Position numbers and translations under genes: made by a program. The notes under the pieces were generated by a model that had not been told where the DNA came from, searched no databases, and saw nothing but the letters and a program-made list of their open reading frames with translations. From Escherichia phage AV111, in sequence record OR352941.1: DNA of 64,000 nt; one strand, given 5' to 3'. Of this stretch, positions 14,702 through 61,326 are shown piece by piece; the stretch's first letter is position 1; each line of letters starts with the position of its first letter.

Positions 14702-15226
14702 TCATTTTAGCAAAATAAAATCAACTTGTTCTGCCAATGAACGTCTAAACATTAATTGACATCTTCCGAGGATGAAATCAGGTGCTTCATAGACCGCTAT
14801 GTAGTATCCTTTGGCTTTCAGGAGTTCAACATCCACCTGGTCATCAAACCATGCATAAACCGCGACAACACTTTCAAATCCAAAATAGAACTCTTGAGCC
14901 CAATCTTCGTTCAATTCAAATGTGTGCTCAACTCTATAGTATCTTAAGATATTTTGTTCAAGGAGTTTGTCTTCATTTACTGTAGGACGATTAGGGACAT
15001 TATAGTTGTCGCCGTGATGGTAGAAGTTACCTGAGAGTATTCCATGCTTATCAAGGAACTCCCATGTTTCTTCAGAGTTGTCGGTGCCTGACCAACCGTA
15101 CGGCGAGCGAGGTTCTTTATTCCAAGAGGTTTCCCAAATTCTGACGGCTTTACCATCTTCGATAGCAATTCCTGGTAATGATTCACGTTGAGTACAAAAA
15201 CTACGTTCTACGCGGTAAACTAACAT
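14702..15226 (-). CDS. hypothetical protein (174 aa)
   Basis: ATG start; promoter and RBS upstream. Confidence 0.55.
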   Translation of the reverse strand: MLVYRVERSFCTQRESLPGIAIEDGKAVRIWETSWNKEPRSPYGWSGTDNSEETWEFLDKHGILSGNFYHHGDNYNVPNRPTVNEDKLLEQNILRYYRVEHTFELNEDWAQEFYFGFESVVAVYAWFDDQVDVELLKAKGYYIAVYEAPDFILGRCQLMFRRSLAEQVDFILLK

Positions 15227-15252
15227 ATTATTCTCCTCTGGTTGATGTGGTT

Positions 15253-15281
15253 ATAATATCAAAACCAGAGGAGAAGTAAAC
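15253..15281 (-). promoter_or_regulatory. early promoter (-35 GTTTAC, 17 nt, -10 TATTAT); spacer arm pairs with the RBS
   Basis: 11-bp perfect inverted repeat TTCTCCTCTGG/CCAGAGGAGAA spanning 15231..15275. Confidence 0.55.
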
Positions 15282-15285
15282 AACT

Positions 15286-15705
15286 TTATGCAAAAGATGC
15301 TGGACAATATTTTTTGATTTGGAACTCAGGAACTACCATGAACTGTCCAGCGAAAACGATGTTATAAAGCTTAACACCATCTTCTACCCATTGGTCCGAA
15401 ATAAAACCAGCAACTTGATTCGTTGTCCACGGTGTTCCATCTGTTGCCGCAGCAATGGTGAACTCGTGGTCTTTTACAACTAAAACCGATCTGCACAGTT
15501 TCCATTTGAACGCGCGTTCTTCTGGCTCGATGAATTGGCTTTTAACGTAACCAATGTTACCATCAGCGTCACGAACTTTAACTTCGTTACGTCCAAAAAC
15601 CGGATCACTCACAGAAAGAACTTCGACCAACTTACCAGCAACTTTAGAGCGAGAAGCATCTGATACGTGTACATAATCACCAATAGAGAGATTTGCAATA
15701 TTCAT
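15286..15705 (-). CDS. hypothetical protein, DQW(V/I)EDG paralog family member A (139 aa)
   Basis: shares N-terminal and C-terminal motifs with the next two genes. Confidence 0.6.
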   Translation of the reverse strand: MNIANLSIGDYVHVSDASRSKVAGKLVEVLSVSDPVFGRNEVKVRDADGNIGYVKSQFIEPEERAFKWKLCRSVLVVKDHEFTIAAATDGTPWTTNQVAGFISDQWVEDGVKLYNIVFAGQFMVVPEFQIKKYCPASFA

Positions 15706-15714
15706 AATAATTCC

Positions 15715-16212
15715 TTAAGCTTTACGAGGAGACACATAGCGAGTGATTTCAGATTCTTCAACAACTCGGAAGTCACCTAAGAATACAATATTGTATAACT
15801 TTTTACCATCTTCAACCCATTGGTCACTAATGAAGCCGCACATAGTATCAGTTTTGCTTGGATAACCGTATTCGTCGATGTAATCAAATTCTTTATCGGT
15901 TATAAATTCAACGCCTTTGCAAAGGGCCCATTTGAACTGTGTAGTAGGCTCAACGATATCGTTTGAAGCAAAGTGTGCAGGTGCAACTTCTTCGCTTGAA
16001 GCAAATTGGACTCGTATATGTTTTTCCAGGAATTTAGGACTTACGTAAGCATACTGGGCATCTTGTCCGCCAAAACTCGGGATGATTCGAACTTTAACTT
16101 CTTTAACACGTCCCATGCCATTAGTACGAAGCCCTGCTACTTCAACCAGACGACCTGCAGCTTTAGAACGAGAAGCAGGAGATACACGAAGGATTTCACC
16201 AATAGTAATCAT
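15715..16212 (-). CDS. hypothetical protein, paralog family member B (165 aa)
   Basis: start moved to ATG at 16212 (MITIGEILRV...) by alignment with paralog A. Confidence 0.6.
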   Translation of the reverse strand: MITIGEILRVSPASRSKAAGRLVEVAGLRTNGMGRVKEVKVRIIPSFGGQDAQYAYVSPKFLEKHIRVQFASSEEVAPAHFASNDIVEPTTQFKWALCKGVEFITDKEFDYIDEYGYPSKTDTMCGFISDQWVEDGKKLYNIVFLGDFRVVEESEITRYVSPRKA

Positions 16213-16242
16213 AATTTCTCTCTCTTTGTTTAAATTGAATTC

Positions 16243-16271
16243 ACTATACTCCATCCATCCTTGGATGTACA
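16243..16271 (-). promoter_or_regulatory. promoter (-35 TGTACA, 17 nt, -10 TATAGT) with spacer palindrome CATCCA-TCCT-TGGATG
   Basis: read from sequence. Confidence 0.5.
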
Positions 16272-16274
16272 ACA

Positions 16275-16769
16275 TTAATTAAGGATATTAACCACAGCAC
16301 TACGTGGAACTACACTAAAATCACCTGCATGAACAACGTTCAGAAGTTCAACGCCGTCTTCAATCCATTGGTCAGTTACCCATCCACTCACTGGTCCTGC
16401 GAACGGACGTCGAATTGAAACAGCTTTACACAACAAATCAGTAGGCTCAATAGGCTTAATCAGAGTACCGTACATACAAGCGATATCCATATCAAAGTGG
16501 AGACCATCTTTAACAGGTGCTTCTTCAATCAACAGTTCAAAGTCTGTGCTTGGAAGGGCGGTAGTAGAAATTGTACCGTATGAATTTTTAATTTCTAAGA
16601 ATAACCAAGGGCCTTCCGTTTGTTTGATGAAGTTAACAATAGTGAAACTATTACCTTGAGTGGCACCTAAAATTTCACAAAACTTTTCATAAGCTCGCAC
16701 TGAAGCACCATACCAGTTAATTTGTTTTTCGTCTTTCAGGATGTAAGTAGCCGTAGTATTGATATTCAT
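16275..16769 (-). CDS. hypothetical protein, paralog family member C (164 aa)
   Basis: C-terminal GWVTDQWIEDG...AGDFSVV motif shared with A and B. Confidence 0.6.
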   Translation of the reverse strand: MNINTTATYILKDEKQINWYGASVRAYEKFCEILGATQGNSFTIVNFIKQTEGPWLFLEIKNSYGTISTTALPSTDFELLIEEAPVKDGLHFDMDIACMYGTLIKPIEPTDLLCKAVSIRRPFAGPVSGWVTDQWIEDGVELLNVVHAGDFSVVPRSAVVNILN

Positions 16770-20046: not shown

Positions 20047-20655
20047 TCAGTAACTGACAATAGACAGATTCCAGATTGTATAACGTCCATCTTGAATAAT
20101 AGAATCTACACGCAGTGTAGTCCCTATAGGGAGCATAAATTCACATTCGTCAGATATAAGTCTAGCATTAGACCGTCTTGTCGCTTCAGGGAAAGCTCCA
20201 TTGAACTCACAAGATGGCGCAGCCAGAATCATGTTAAGCATATGTTCACGGAAGTTGAAAGCAAATGGTGCATCTTTGATGCAGAACATATTAAATGTTC
20301 CGTAAAAATTATACGAAGCAAAGTTACGTGCTACACCGAACACTGGGCTGAAGCTCATTACTCTGTCAAATTTAATAATACTACCAATGCCTTTATCATC
20401 AAGTGTGGCCATAGTTTTCTTAGAGATTCCACGATACATTGTCTCAGGAACAGAAGACGTCCAATTTCTACGAACGATTGAACTTAACTCCTGTTGAATA
20501 CAGTCTGGCTTGTTTTCCATACACTGCCAAAGGATGCTTTGTTCATTATCGTTGAATTGACTATCAATTTCGTACTGCAATACATCTTGATATTCGGGGG
20601 TTTGAGCACGACGAACCATTTCTTCAATTTCACACTCGTTATACGGCATAAACAT
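20047..20655 (-). CDS. modA: ADP-ribosyltransferase ModA-like
   Basis: 202 aa; YRG motif; paralog of the adjacent gene; synteny. Confidence 0.7.
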   Translation of the reverse strand: MFMPYNECEIEEMVRRAQTPEYQDVLQYEIDSQFNDNEQSILWQCMENKPDCIQQELSSIVRRNWTSSVPETMYRGISKKTMATLDDKGIGSIIKFDRVMSFSPVFGVARNFASYNFYGTFNMFCIKDAPFAFNFREHMLNMILAAPSCEFNGAFPEATRRSNARLISDECEFMLPIGTTLRVDSIIQDGRYTIWNLSIVSY

Positions 20656-20712: not shown

Positions 20713-21294
20713 CTAAAAATTCAACATTTTCAAATGAATGATTTTGTATAATCGAGATAAAGGGTCATATTCTAAGTCTTCAATTTCCACAATCTCAAAT
20801 CTAGAGATACCTGAGACCATGTACTCTTGTTCAGATTCAATCATATCTAGGACGTCAACACGCTTTTCTTCCATAATATGCTTAGGGTTCTTTCCGGCGA
20901 GTACAATGTTAACCATGTTTTGGTAGTAATCAAAAATGAATGGAGCATTCCTGAGACTAAGAATAGTGTACGTCTGATACTCCCAACTCCCAGAGAATTG
21001 ACGAGCTGTACTGAAATCAGTTGTGAACGATGTTACTCGTCCAGGAGACCAATGACATCCAACAGAAAGAAGTGAAAGACGTTCTACTTCTTCTGGAGTT
21101 ACACCACGGTAGAGTTCTACTGGTACTGTAGAAGTCATATGCTTACGAACAAGATGGTCTAATTCATAGTGGAAATCCGGGTCTTCCTTAGAATCGGTGC
21201 AAGCCCAGAGAATGTTTTGTTCTTGTTTAGTGAATTTGCTATCAATCAGATTTGTTAGGTATTCACGTTCTTGAAGTTCAGATTGACATGTCAT
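20713..21294 (-). CDS. modB: ADP-ribosyltransferase ModB-like
   Basis: 193 aa; YRG motif; paralog of modA. Confidence 0.7.
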   Translation of the reverse strand: MTCQSELQEREYLTNLIDSKFTKQEQNILWACTDSKEDPDFHYELDHLVRKHMTSTVPVELYRGVTPEEVERLSLLSVGCHWSPGRVTSFTTDFSTARQFSGSWEYQTYTILSLRNAPFIFDYYQNMVNIVLAGKNPKHIMEEKRVDVLDMIESEQEYMVSGISRFEIVEIEDLEYDPLSRLYKIIHLKMLNF

Positions 21295-21321
21295 GATAGA
21301 CCTCCATTTAAAGATAAGCCT

Positions 21322-21350
21322 ATCATAACACGAGAGGAGGGAATGTAAAC
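21322..21350 (-). promoter_or_regulatory. early promoter (-35 GTTTAC, 17 nt, -10 TATGAT) upstream of modB
   Basis: read from sequence. Confidence 0.5.
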
Positions 21351-28309: not shown

Positions 28310-28501
28310 TTATCCTCTGAAATCAGCTTCAAAAACTTTCTCGTCATTAATAAATGCTTTAACTAATGCATTGTTCACTTCAGCAAGTTGTACCGTAACC
28401 CACTCGATTTCTTCGCGATCACCTGATAACATGATATCTTTAGTGAACATCTCACCGCTTTTAAACCAACCGATAAAAGTAACTTTAGTTAATTTGCTCA
28501 T
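28310..28501 (-). CDS. dmd: Dmd-like protein (63 aa)
   Basis: ATG at 28501; position upstream of 41 region; recollection of T4 Dmd is weak. Confidence 0.45.
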   Translation of the reverse strand: MSKLTKVTFIGWFKSGEMFTKDIMLSGDREEIEWVTVQLAEVNNALVKAFINDEKVFEADFRG

Positions 28502-28815
28502 ATTTCCTCGCAAAAGGCCCATTCAGCGTGATAAACTGTAGCACCTTTAGTATTATTCATTTGAACTACGTCTACCGGAGAAATTACTCGATAGAGACGT
28601 GGTTCACCTCCATAAGAGCGTGCTGCTCGTCCTGCATAAATCTTTGCTAAACCGATATCTTCAGTAAAGAATACACGATCCAAGTTTTTCTTACGTCCAG
28701 TTTCAGACAGAACTCCTGTTTCTTCAGGAGGACAAAGCATGTTTTCGATGTTAGCTGAACTACTTGAACCGTGATAAAAAATCTTAAATTCTGCTTTACA
28801 ATCGATGGTTTTCAT
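28498..28815 (-). CDS. hypothetical protein (105 aa)
   Basis: ATG start, GGAG RBS. Confidence 0.5.
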   Translation of the reverse strand: MKTIDCKAEFKIFYHGSSSSANIENMLCPPEETGVLSETGRKKNLDRVFFTEDIGLAKIYAGRAARSYGGEPRLYRVISPVDVVQMNNTKGATVYHAEWAFCEEI

Positions 28816-28841
28816 TTTGTTCTCCAGTAGTTGATAGGTCT

Positions 28842-28870
28842 ATAATAACACAACTACTGGAGAAGTAAAC
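28842..28870 (-). promoter_or_regulatory. early promoter (-35 GTTTAC, 17 nt, -10 TATTAT) inside a 14-bp inverted repeat that pairs the spacer with the RBS
   Basis: TTCTCCAGTAGTTG/CAACTACTGGAGAA perfect repeat spanning 28820..28864. Confidence 0.55.
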
Positions 28871-29245
28871 TTAAAAACGTAATTTAGATATATCCGCGTT
28901 GATTTCGTTTTGGTTTGCGTCGTATGCAATTAAACGAACCGCTTTAGATGGGTCATTCAATGCATAGAAATGATGGAACATTGCTCGAACGATATCACCA
29001 TTTACGAGTTCTACCTGGATAGGAGAACCTTTTTCGAGTTGGAAATGTTCATAAGCTTTGATGGTTCGTAGATAATCAAGTTTTTGATTTCCAGCTCCAA
29101 CTATTTGTACGATACGTTTGCCTGTGTTTTCCATATGAGATACAATAGTTTTAGGAGCAAGAATAACGTAGGTTGCCAGCGGAGAAACTACTTCAACAGT
29201 TGTGTTTTCGGTGATTGCAGTAAAAATTGCTTGAGACATATTCAT
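28871..29245 (-). CDS. hypothetical protein (124 aa)
   Basis: ORF in track, ATG start. Confidence 0.5.
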   Translation of the reverse strand: MNMSQAIFTAITENTTVEVVSPLATYVILAPKTIVSHMENTGKRIVQIVGAGNQKLDYLRTIKAYEHFQLEKGSPIQVELVNGDIVRAMFHHFYALNDPSKAVRLIAYDANQNEINADISKLRF

Positions 29246-29274
29246 AATGTTTTCCTCTTGGTTTGTGTAAGTAC

Positions 29275-29304
29275 ATCATATCATGCCTAGAGGAAGATGT
29301 AAAC
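29275..29304 (-). promoter_or_regulatory. early promoter (-35 GTTTAC, 18 nt, -10 TATGAT) with imperfect spacer/RBS inverted repeat
   Basis: TTCCTCTAGG vs CCAAGAGGAA, 9 of 10 pairs. Confidence 0.5.
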
Positions 29305-29311
29305 CCCGAAA

Positions 29312-29327
29312 GGAGACCGAAGTCTCC
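29312..29327 (-). terminator. hairpin GGAGAC-UUCG-GUCUCC immediately downstream of gene 41
   Basis: perfect 6-bp stem, UUCG loop; short U tail. Confidence 0.5.
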
Positions 29328-29333
29328 TTTTTA

Positions 29334-30776
29334 TTAAAATTTTAACTCATTGGCTAAGCTATCTAGGTCAGCACGTGTTGCTTTGGCTTTACCTACGCGT
29401 TCCGTACGATTCACCTCTGCCTGACGCATCTGAGCACCTGCGTTTTCATTTACTGTGTTAGGTGTGTTCATGCCTTCTTGCTCAATCTCAACCCATTTCT
29501 GATTGCCTTTACGTACACCCATCAGGAATTTATTCCACTTATTCTTATCGCCGTATCGTGATTTGATTTGTTTGATAAGTTGTTGTTCAGCTTGTGCAAG
29601 TTCTTCGGTTTCAATTACAGCCAACATGAAATCTGCCGTTGCTGGTAAACCTGCTGATTCTGCGATATCACTCATGTTCATGTCTGAAGCATCCCATGCT
29701 GCACGTCCTACTTGAGCTGCAGTCCATAGAACTGTTTCAGATTCTACTGCTAATGCACGAAGTTCTTCTGCGATAGCTTTAACTAATGTGTAGCTATTTT
29801 CAGTGTAAACTCTGATACGACAAGACCCACAAATACCTAAGTAATCAACCATGATTACAGACGGCACAAAGTTCTTCTTAAGTTTTAACTCATTAAGCAA
29901 TGCACGAAATGTATTAGCATTAGCTCCACCAGTAGGATACTGTTTAACTACTAAACGTCCTAATGTGGATTTTGAACGCCATTTTTCCATCTTGGCTTTA
30001 TATTCAGCATAAGATACGTTACCATCATCGATATCATCGAGTGATACGTCAAGCATGTTTGCATCTATACGCTTAGCACAAACTTCTTCAGCCATTTCCA
30101 TGGAAATATAAAGAACATTATGACCTGTTTGAAGATAATCTGCAGCAAGTGAACAAAGGCCTAAAGATTTACCGACGTTAACACCAGCCATTAAAACGTT
30201 TAGTGTACCTGTTTCAGCACCACCTTTGGTGATTTTATTCAAAATGTTTAATTTGAACGGGACCTTACGTGCTTTATTTAGATAAGAAAGCCAGCGTGCT
30301 TCGTAGTCTTCCATCCAGTCGTGTCCAACATAACTATCGAACGAAATTGAAAGTGCTTGACGCATAATATCAGGAATAGCTCCTACGTCAGGCATTTTCT
30401 TGTTACGTTGTTCTGGAGGTAGTTCAGCATTAGACTGAATCTCAATGATTTTGGATGTAGCATTATACATCGCTTTTTGCTGGACATATTTCTCAGTTTC
30501 TTTAACCAACCATTCGTGGTCTTCAGGAGTATCAGCCAATTTTTCAATTAGGTCTGAAGTTCCTTTATATTCGGCTTCAGTTAAAGAACTGTTATCTAAA
30601 GCCACCTTTAACGCATTGATAGATGGCATTGCATTATATTCGTTAACGTGGCTCTTTATAATTTTAAAGACATTTTTTGCCGGTCCACGCTCAAAATACT
30701 CAGAATCCATATAAGGCCAGACCTTAGAAAAATAAGCCTGGTCATATACGAGATGAGACAAAATAATTTCTACCAC
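29334..30776 (-). CDS. 41: replicative DNA helicase gp41 (DnaB-like)
   Basis: 480 aa; strong match to T4 gp41 throughout as recalled. Confidence 0.95.
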   Translation of the reverse strand: MVEIILSHLVYDQAYFSKVWPYMDSEYFERGPAKNVFKIIKSHVNEYNAMPSINALKVALDNSSLTEAEYKGTSDLIEKLADTPEDHEWLVKETEKYVQQKAMYNATSKIIEIQSNAELPPEQRNKKMPDVGAIPDIMRQALSISFDSYVGHDWMEDYEARWLSYLNKARKVPFKLNILNKITKGGAETGTLNVLMAGVNVGKSLGLCSLAADYLQTGHNVLYISMEMAEEVCAKRIDANMLDVSLDDIDDGNVSYAEYKAKMEKWRSKSTLGRLVVKQYPTGGANANTFRALLNELKLKKNFVPSVIMVDYLGICGSCRIRVYTENSYTLVKAIAEELRALAVESETVLWTAAQVGRAAWDASDMNMSDIAESAGLPATADFMLAVIETEELAQAEQQLIKQIKSRYGDKNKWNKFLMGVRKGNQKWVEIEQEGMNTPNTVNENAGAQMRQAEVNRTERVGKAKATRADLDSLANELKF

Positions 30777-52885: not shown

Positions 52886-53064
52886 GGCTTAATTTCCTTC
52901 GCAATTGAACAGAAGATACCACGGTCACAAAGCATTTCACCAATTTCTGGATATTTGATTGAACGGTACCAAACATCCAGGCTTGAAACTCTGGTTATCT
53001 GTACGGCATTACCATTGACAGAATAGTACTGGTCAACCTTAATTTCTTTATCTTCAATTGTCAT
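52882..53064 (-). CDS. small protein (60 aa)
   Basis: ATG at 53064 with GAGGAAAA RBS; track ORF over-extended. Confidence 0.45.
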   Translation of the reverse strand: MTIEDKEIKVDQYYSVNGNAVQITRVSSLDVWYRSIKYPEIGEMLCDRGIFCSIAKEIKP

Positions 53065-53092
53065 TTTATTTTCCTCTATAGCAGATGGTTTA

Positions 53093-53121
53093 ATCTTAAC
53101 ACATCTATTGAGGATGTAAAC
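53093..53121 (-). promoter_or_regulatory. early promoter (-35 GTTTAC, 17 nt, -10 TAAGAT)
   Basis: read from sequence. Confidence 0.45.
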
Positions 53122-57262: not shown

Positions 57263-57732
57263 TTTAAACTCTTTCTAAGCTGCTTTTTGAATGAAGCTAT
57301 TAATTGTGTTTTAGTATCAGATTCATTATATTCAAATCCTCTTTGAAGCATCTCAGCCATCATTTCCTCTTTGCCTAGTCTTGAGAACTCTTTAGTTTTG
57401 TCTGGAACAAAATTAGGATGGATATTATTATCAGAATAATCTTGTTTCAAATAAGCAAGAAGAGCTTCAAGCCATTCGAGGTAGTCAACATCACGTCCTT
57501 TAAGACCGGAACGATTGAACTTATGCTTCATTTGGCCTTCTGCTGCGTTGCACAGAGAACAGAGTAACCCACGAACTCTACCGGCTTTTGGCCCGTTTAA
57601 TTCGTGGTCGTGGTCAAGATGGTTACCTTGAACATCAGGGTCTAATTCACGGTGGCAAATAGGACACTTACCATTCTGTGCATCATAAAATTTTTGTTTT
57701 TCTTCTTTGTATAATTTGCCAGATAATAACAT
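57259..57732 (-). CDS. 49: endonuclease VII gp49 (Holliday junction resolvase)
   Basis: 157 aa; near-identical to T4 gp49 as recalled. Confidence 0.95.
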   Translation of the reverse strand: MLLSGKLYKEEKQKFYDAQNGKCPICHRELDPDVQGNHLDHDHELNGPKAGRVRGLLCSLCNAAEGQMKHKFNRSGLKGRDVDYLEWLEALLAYLKQDYSDNNIHPNFVPDKTKEFSRLGKEEMMAEMLQRGFEYNESDTKTQLIASFKKQLRKSLK

Positions 57733-57762
57733 AATAAACCCTTACCATATATAAGATAAGGG

Positions 57763-57770
57763 TATTTATA
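57763..57770 (-). promoter_or_regulatory. late promoter TATAAATA (minus strand) about 31 nt upstream of the gene 49 ATG
   Basis: exact late consensus octamer. Confidence 0.55.
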
Positions 57771-61296: not shown

Positions 61297-61326
61297 ATTA
61301 TACTCCAACCATCCTTGGTTGTAAAC
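61297..61326 (-). promoter_or_regulatory. promoter (-35 GTTTAC, 18 nt, -10 TATAAT) with spacer palindrome CAACCA-TCCT-TGGTTG
   Basis: read from sequence. Confidence 0.55.

Follow-up and report, generated by a model that had tools for sequence, protein, structure and literature searches.

Early-promoter cassettes of a T4-type phage encode RNA hairpins predicted to hide the ribosome-binding site in read-through transcripts

RNA hairpins are probably encoded by sigma-70-type early-promoter/ribosome-site cassettes of Escherichia phage AV111, such that RNA reading through from an upstream promoter would hide the Shine-Dalgarno sequence (SD) of the next gene while RNA started at the local promoter would leave it open, with a consequent effect on translation. 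The window analysed is a stretch of 64,000 nucleotides (OR352941.1), to which all positions refer unless a T4 accession or locus is given. It is an early region of a Mosigvirus (RB69-like, T4-type), with its genes on the minus strand; the 4-kb stretch around the first cassette described below is 99% identical to Mosigvirus genomes.

Promoter sequences complementary to the translation initiation region

The minus strand carries every gene of the region, and all features below are given on that strand. Along the direction of transcription, uvsX, gene 40 and the gene 41 helicase (29334-30776) are followed by a UUCG-loop hairpin (29309-29330), an early promoter with its -35 at 29304 (P29304), ORF124 (28871-29245), a second early promoter with its -35 at 28870 (P28870), ORF105 (28498-28815, ATG at 28815), and then dmd and the following genes. 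Transcripts from P29304 would cross P28870. The hairpin, AAAGGAGAC-UUCG-GUCUCCUUU, lies 3' of gene 41 just before P29304; read by eye, it is a terminator-like, PeSL-type (promoter-early stem-loop) structure upstream of the -35, and it is missing from the sites listed by a consensus terminator scan. ORF105 has relatives in 50 T4-like viral contigs (55-99% identity), always near gene 41 or dmd; it matched no Pfam family and has no T4 counterpart.

The cassette preceding ORF105 (site 1, 28820-28870) reads, on the coding strand, GTTTAC, TTCTCCAGTAGTTG, tgt, TATTAT, agacctat, CAACTACTGGAGAA, caaa, ATG. Its -35 hexamer GTTTAC (28865-28870) directly abuts the TAA stop codon of ORF124 (28871-28873). 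The 5' arm of the inverted repeat, TTCTCCAGTAGTTG (28851-28864), is the promoter spacer itself and is present in read-through RNA only; the -10 hexamer TATTAT (28842-28847), preceded by TG, falls in the hairpin loop; and the 3' arm, CAACTACTGGAGAA (28820-28833), lies over the SD, GGAG (28825-28822). The first-pass annotation had described precisely this arrangement, a 14-bp perfect repeat with one arm after GTTTAC, the other on GGAG and the -10 in the loop, and the sequence bears it out exactly; the stem moreover extends to 19 nt at 89% complementarity. Promoters and transcription start sites were assigned by consensus rules, which place the predicted start of site 1 at the A at 28835. Since the 5' arm coincides with the promoter spacer, a transcript begun about 7 nt past the -10 cannot contain it; wherever the local promoter could plausibly start, the arm is upstream of that point.

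Site 2 (15231-15281) follows the same plan with an unrelated inner sequence. It precedes ORF174 (14702-15226, ATG at 15226), an orthologue of T4/RB32 motB.2 with about 33% identity. Here the -35 GTTTAC (P15281) occupies 15276-15281, the 5' arm TTCTCCTCTGGTT (15263-15275) again constitutes the promoter spacer, the -10 TATTAT (15253-15258) is in the loop, the start site is predicted at 15246 by the same consensus rules, and the 3' arm AACCAGAGGAGAA (15231-15243) covers the SD, GGAG (15236-15233). A repeat with this layout had been noted at 15231-15275 as 11 bp long; the layout is as described, and the perfect repeat measures 13 bp. Upstream of the orthologue, between it and dexA, lie three tandem paralogues (ORF164, ORF186 and ORF139, within 15286-16769) that share a C-terminal motB-like domain, with a match to Pfam PF17613 on ORF139; in T4, dexA abuts the motB.2 promoter.

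Folding separates the two kinds of transcript. The read-through RNA of site 1 folds at -21.9 kcal/mol (z = -4.4) and that of site 2 at -21.1 kcal/mol (z = -4.3), with 0 of 200 shuffled sequences doing as well in either case, whereas the promoter-proximal RNAs of both sites, started about 7 nt past the -10, are unstructured at 0 kcal/mol. The proposed comparison of read-through with promoter-proximal RNA thus came out as anticipated at these two sites, at about -22 against 0 kcal/mol. The cost of opening the segment from SD to AUG, computed with 150 nt of upstream context, is 15.8 kcal/mol in the read-through RNA of site 1 versus 3.6 in the promoter-proximal RNA, and 13.5 versus 3.0 kcal/mol at site 2.

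A third repeat had been placed in the same class, at P29304 before ORF124 (29252-29295; arms 29286-29295 and 29252-29261). The repeat is there, with 9 of 10 bp, but its read-through RNA folds at -10.2 kcal/mol, no better than shuffled sequence (z = +0.35; 124 of 200 shuffles at least as good). The spacer-leader duplex, at -13.0, is roughly at the 5% tail of what non-cognate pairs of spacer and leader give, the opening cost is 5.5 kcal/mol in read-through versus 2.6 in promoter-proximal RNA, and the ddG (defined in the next section), 4.3 kcal/mol, places it among the top 15% of the chimeras used as controls. The claim that read-through RNA hides the ribosome-binding site accordingly holds in the folds of sites 1 and 2, where the opening cost rises from 3.0-3.6 to 13.5-15.8 kcal/mol, and is at chance level at site 3, which was set aside as evidence. 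A further weak cassette of the same layout occurs at 53064-53121 (TCCTC...GAGGA plus AGATG/CATCT; -11.8 kcal/mol, z = -1.4).

A better third case than site 3, absent from the first-pass annotation, is the cassette at 21287-21350, which precedes a modB-like gene (ORF193, 20713-21294, 37.5% identical to T4 modB by tblastn). Its read-through hairpin (21287-21332) is shifted with respect to those of sites 1 and 2: the 5' arm comprises the end of the spacer, the -10 hexamer TATGAT (21327-21322) and AGGCU, and the 3' arm, GGUCUAUCAUGACAUG (21287-21305), runs from the last part of the SD through the AUG (21294) into the first codons. With 16+3 bp, four of them G.U, the stem folds at -22.5 kcal/mol (z = -4.35), and opening SD to AUG costs 16.5 kcal/mol in read-through versus 2.4 in proximal RNA. 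Because the -10 hexamer is itself part of the arm, a local transcript cannot contain that arm.

Whether read-through RNA would arise can be judged from the absence of terminators: the consensus scan calls nothing terminator-like on the way from the upstream promoters to sites 1 and 2. The hairpins themselves were rejected as Rho-independent terminators, for their loops are 17-19 nt long, their tails (CAAAAUG and UAAUAUG) contain no U-tract, and they are not among the scan's calls. With no terminator before the cassettes and no T-run after the hairpins, read-through RNA, in whatever amount, is to be expected.

The upstream reading frames end close to the promoters, TAA abutting GTTTAC at site 1 and a TAG overlapping the -35 at 21350 in the modB-like cassette. 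Such proximity would suit translational coupling, in which ribosomes finishing the upstream frame melt the hairpin, so that on read-through RNA the downstream gene would need upstream translation. From stop codon to main stem, however, the distances are 6, 10 and 17 nt. If a ribosome that terminates covers, as estimated, some 7 nt past the stop, 13 of the 14 bp at site 1, and the whole stems of site 2 and of the cassette at 21350, would stay paired. Judged by this spacing, a terminating ribosome should not melt the stem, and coupling is hardly credible as the role of these structures.

Enrichment over chimeric cassettes and changes among relatives

The window contains 18 cassettes consisting of an early promoter, an SD and an ATG. 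Across these 18, complementarity between a spacer and its own leader exceeds that of non-cognate pairs (permutation p = 5e-5), and sites 1 and 2 are the only outliers. To express the asymmetry between transcripts, ddG was taken as the opening cost of the SD-to-AUG segment in the read-through RNA minus that in the primary RNA, and non-cognate chimeras, made by exchanging upstream halves between cassettes, served as controls. In 64 cassette clusters, drawn from the window and 50 T4-like loci, ddG reaches at least 10 kcal/mol in 8, versus 0.67% of chimeras, and 0 of 20,000 permutations attained the observed mean ddG. In T4, ddG is at least 8 kcal/mol in 10 of 31 early cassettes (modB, regB, ndd.4, motB.2, 30.8, nrdC.8, e.8, denV, alc and alt.-3) versus 3.7% of chimeras, again with 0 of 20,000 permutations at the observed mean. 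In the majority of cassettes the effect is small or absent: 14 of the 18 in the window stay below 10 kcal/mol and 21 of the 31 in T4 below 8. At the early promoter of T4 regB (AF158101, 62740-62797), the spacer and SD form a hairpin, UUCCUCUUGACUG / CAGUUAAGAGGAG, with one G.U pair and a ddG of 13.9 kcal/mol; if it acts, synthesis of RegB would be tied to its own promoter, beside the known self-cleavage at the SD.

Inverted repeats may act as DNA or as RNA. A strand-neutral search for stems returned G.U over A.C mismatches by 7 to 0 among ungapped stems with a score of at least 8 (p = 0.024), an excess suggesting that it is the sense RNA, and not the DNA, that pairs. A palindrome or operator acting at the DNA level was rejected on this ground and because the arms differ at each site. 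The gap between sense and antisense folding energies in T4 is biased, the cases having been picked on sense folding, and was not relied on.

Comparison of orthologous cassettes gives evidence of a different kind. For modB, the cassettes of the window, T4 and nine other phages were aligned, and RNAalifold recovers the hairpin unaided. Compensatory double changes occur at 4 of 13 pairs, 94.3% of alignment cells are paired versus 34-50% when the partner columns are slid, and the covariation score is 0.354 versus 0.251 +/- 0.025 in shuffles, 0 of 500 of which score as high; one gap is misplaced in the window row of this MAFFT alignment, which renders the pair and covariation counts slightly conservative. 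The motB.2 cassettes of T4 and four other Tequatroviruses form a hairpin of -24 kcal/mol with the layout of site 2 from arms, UCCUCGGUUAGUUGUGGU and ACCAUAGCUACUGAGGA, that are unrelated in sequence to those of site 2, so that in this family the structure is conserved and the sequence is not. The denV cassette of T4, which uses the promoter-leader module of site 1, carries TCTCCTGTAG/CTACAGGAGA, against TCTCCAGTAG/CTACTGGAGA at site 1 of the window, a compensatory A/T swap. As comparisons of sequence, the motB.2 layout, the denV swap and the modB covariation support the notion that RNA pairing has been under selection.

The cassettes of ORF105 orthologues in the 50 viral contigs are heterogeneous; those of GTTTAC type keep an anti-SD right after the -35. 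Within them the anti-SD:SD pairing TCTCC:GGAGA becomes TCCTC:GAGGA in contig L019, and contigs L012 and L014 have A-T in place of T-A as the basal anti-SD:SD pair. As for the inner helix, the window's AGTAGTTG:CAACTACT gives way entirely to CA(A/G)GGC:GCCUUG in L017 and L020, with alternation between A-U and G.U. The complete stem of 14 bp at site 1 is confined to its lineage: what RB69-like relatives (89% protein identity) retain is a weaker stem in two parts, TCTCC/GGAGA and a short additional helix, and the SD is not sequestered in every one of their minimum-free-energy folds. RB69-like phages also carry the promoter-leader module of site 1 before a different gene (...ATCTCCAGTAG...CTACTGGAGG). 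In L017-L020, ORF124 and P28870 (28871-29304) are absent, and the ORF105 orthologue directly follows the gene-41 hairpin/terminator and promoter; by this comparison the ORF124/P28870 segment is an indel with homologous promoter cassettes at its borders.

Such shuffling raises the question of whether the stems have any function at all. They could be by-products of cassette recombination, or of quasipalindrome (template-switch) mutation acting on a chance complementarity between a pyrimidine-rich spacer and GGAG. The recurrence of one module before different genes, the indel and the lineage-specificity of the long perfect stems are in keeping with such an origin, and T4 is a classical system for quasipalindrome mutagenesis. 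A functionless by-product is nevertheless very improbable given the enrichment over chimeras in two independent sets, the retention of structure with different sequences in motB.2 orthologues, the modB covariation and the preponderance of G.U over A.C.

Promoter choice, translation and RegB

The favoured explanation would operate as follows. The 5' arm is provided by promoter DNA, either the spacer after the -35 (sites 1 and 2) or the -10 and discriminator (modB type), and the 3' arm by the translation initiation region of the next gene. Polymerase coming from an upstream promoter would transcribe both arms, and the resulting hairpin would bury the SD, together with the AUG in the modB type. 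The read-through mRNA would then be a poor template for translation of that gene, with its GGAG shielded from the RegB endonuclease. RNA started locally would begin 1-2 nt before the 3' arm, could not fold, and would be open both to ribosomes and to RegB. Protein output would thereby be set by the gene's own early promoter rather than by cumulative upstream transcription, the net outcome being translational insulation and restriction to the immediate-early period.

There is a precedent for such an arrangement in T4, where genes e, soc, 49 and I-TevI have RBS-sequestering hairpins with an embedded proximal promoter, and where translation of gene e is reduced 100-fold (PMC3014915). In both systems the SD and/or AUG is paired in transcripts initiated upstream (here, in the folds of -21.9, -21.1 and -22.5 kcal/mol), and the promoter lies in the DNA of the 5' strand, so that its own transcripts, which here start at predicted positions, lack that strand. 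By analogy with gene e, the hairpins described here would block binding of the 30S subunit. In the T4 genes the transcripts from the proximal promoter are translated, and promoter choice thus sets translation; the same would hold here. The two systems differ in the embedded promoter, which in T4 is a late one (gp55, TATAAATA) and here a sigma-70 early promoter with the spacer or the -10 as arm: sites 1 and 2 have a GTTTAC -35 and a TG-extended -10, the strong cases of the window follow GTTTAC-N17-TATTAT/TATGAT, and no late-promoter motif TATAAATA is present at the cassettes. They differ also in timing. In the T4 late cases early read-through RNA is silent and late RNA is translated, whereas here the order would be reversed, translation being confined to immediate-early RNA, or the effect would be one of insulation. 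Finally, in contrast to the late e/soc/49/I-TevI set, the heuristic used here marks roughly a third of the early cassettes of T4 as affected. The most fitting reading is of an early-promoter form of the switch known from T4, in which promoter choice governs translation, carried by promoter cassettes that shuffle.

RNA hairpins likewise sequester a phage ribosome-binding site and limit translation in Aeh1 mobE and T4 segB (Gibb and Edgell 2009, as summarized in PMC3014915); in contrast to the present cases, that summary does not report that the effect depends on an early promoter lying within the hairpin. Pairing between early-promoter spacer and SD is not described in the literature searched, a search with older T4 work outside its scope, so that novelty is uncertain; the published analysis of RB69 early promoters does not mention hairpins, and Rfam covariance models had no match at gathering score over the whole window. 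As to the gene products, the proteins downstream of the cassettes had no Pfam match, except for motB on a neighbouring ORF, and so give little functional rationale beyond the homology to modB and motB.2.

The SDs involved resemble the sites at which RegB cuts. The segment GGAGAACAAAA of site 1 (28825-28815) fits the RegB/S1 consensus GGAGRAYARAA exactly, and GGAGAATAATA of site 2 (15236-15226) fits it at 10 of 11 positions. Secondary structure inhibits RegB, and most middle transcripts resist it (PMC3014915). Since RegB is blocked by structure and these SDs fit its site, the hairpin should shield read-through RNA while primary transcripts are cut. In T4, motB.2 is cut in vivo, and modB RNA is resistant to RegB in vitro, which was put down to its structure, yet is cut in vivo (Durand 2006, PMC1702504). 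That T4 study has structured SDs that escape RegB, as those described here would, and modB RNA that is structured in vitro; it set the structured sites aside and ascribed in vivo cleavage of modB to nascent RNA, with no link drawn to a promoter inside the hairpin, as is drawn here. On my own reinterpretation, cleavage of modB in vivo would follow if the substrate were the primary transcript, which would lack the 5' arm.

These observations could be taken to mean that the hairpin serves mainly to hide GGAG from RegB, and from RNase E/G, in long read-through transcripts, whose downstream polycistronic parts would survive while short primary transcripts were inactivated. As the main role this is rather improbable, for RegB is dispensable in T4 and diverged in RB69, and the modB-type hairpin is centred on the AUG and not on GGAG. 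Shielding is moreover compatible with a translational switch and is not an alternative to it; RegB protection, like attenuation, may be another consequence of the same hairpin.

A broader proposal, which I put forward tentatively and consider rather less probable than its opposite, is that T-even early genes possess a general translational insulator, in which a cassette's promoter DNA also supplies the strand opposing the ribosome site in any RNA that arrives from upstream, and the same structures determine which copies of GGAG are cut by RegB. If so, a mobile promoter-gene cassette would be translated only from its own promoter in any genomic neighbourhood, and cassettes could be shuffled between phages with their expression unchanged. 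The insulator could also explain the differing RegB sensitivity of overlapping early and middle transcripts and the resistance of T4 modB RNA in vitro but not in vivo, and the design offers a concrete, testable account of the selectivity of RegB for early rather than longer transcripts. In the early regions of T4-type phages, very strong promoters, each with a small gene behind it, are arrayed one after another, and long transcripts cross them all; were promoter DNA to silence the ribosome site that follows it on read-through RNA, the dosage and timing of many early genes would be set locally. The genes affected include toxic ones, such as those for the ModB ADP-ribosyltransferase and the RegB nuclease, and the clear T4 examples (motB.2, modB, regB and denV) make the proposal testable in the best-developed phage system.

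Stem-loops elsewhere in the early promoters

The cassettes also resemble the PeSL cassettes of T4-type phages (Arbiol 2010, PMC2839356; Comeau 2014, PMC4122927). Both consist of an AT-rich intergenic region with a strong early promoter, a stem-loop, an SD and an ATG, and both lie in plastic regions marked by indels and cassette exchange, as with ORF124/P28870 here. The five described positions of PeSL stems, none of which includes the SD, were read as terminators or attenuators and as recombination sites. Here, by contrast, the SD or AUG lies within the 3' arm (28820-28833, 15231-15243 and 21287-21305), no T-run follows, and the action would be translational. Simple membership in the PeSL class was rejected because the published stem positions leave the SD out.

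Even so, the stem-loop could act as a PeSL-type transcriptional attenuator that cuts incoming transcription or stabilises the 3' end of the upstream mRNA, its overlap with the SD being incidental. In RB49 and phi1, early-promoter stem-loop cassettes have stems between or overlapping the -35 and -10, and one such stem lowered expression of a downstream lacZ as strongly as rrnB T1 (Arbiol 2010, PMC2839356); in the window, many cassettes have the -10 flanked by inverted repeats from which the SD is left out, and the spacer hairpin of P16830 is followed by a T-run. Against this, the three strong hairpins have loops of 17-19 nt or lack a T-run, 0 of 3 were called by the terminator scan, and their 3' arms sit on the SD or AUG, where attenuation would not require them, while the covariation follows the SD and the start region. 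Attenuation is therefore unlikely to be the primary function of the three, and a promoter-dependent effect on translation remains the preferred explanation for them.

Promoter-embedded stem-loops are broader than the SD-hiding subset. At P63984, P27352, P5274 and P4762, inverted repeats lie around the -10 and end near +1, leaving the SD untouched. These repeats, of which GGACUAU...AUAGUCC is an example, can be formed only by read-through RNA, and they resemble published PeSL classes; a 15-bp counterpart that includes a G.U pair is found at T4 dmd (L106, about 20560-20612). As many cassettes carry repeats that bracket the -10 and miss the SD, sequestration of the SD is not the sole reason for palindromic promoter cassettes.

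Two elements have the appearance of terminators. The spacer of P16830 (16807-16828) contains a 9-bp hairpin of its own, TTACAACCA/TGGTTGTAG, followed by TATAATCTTTTT, a terminator-like structure nested within a promoter; AACCATCCTTGGTT, the core of this spacer, reappears in reverse complement as the spacer core AACCAAGGATGGTT of the promoter at 61326 (61303-61320). At 57742-57763, after ORF59, a 9-bp hairpin, ACCCUUAUC/GGUAAGGGU, has a U-rich tail, and its 3' arm overlaps the SD (AAGGG) of ORF157 (ATG at 57732). P57781 had a high score in the chimera test and was discarded, since it looks like a terminator overlapping an SD and not like a promoter cassette.

At the predicted +1 of most early cassettes of the window, about 7 nt past the -10, there is a motif A-T-C-A-A/T-C (for example ATCAAC and ATCTTA), which suggests a conserved initial transcribed sequence of the promoter cassettes.
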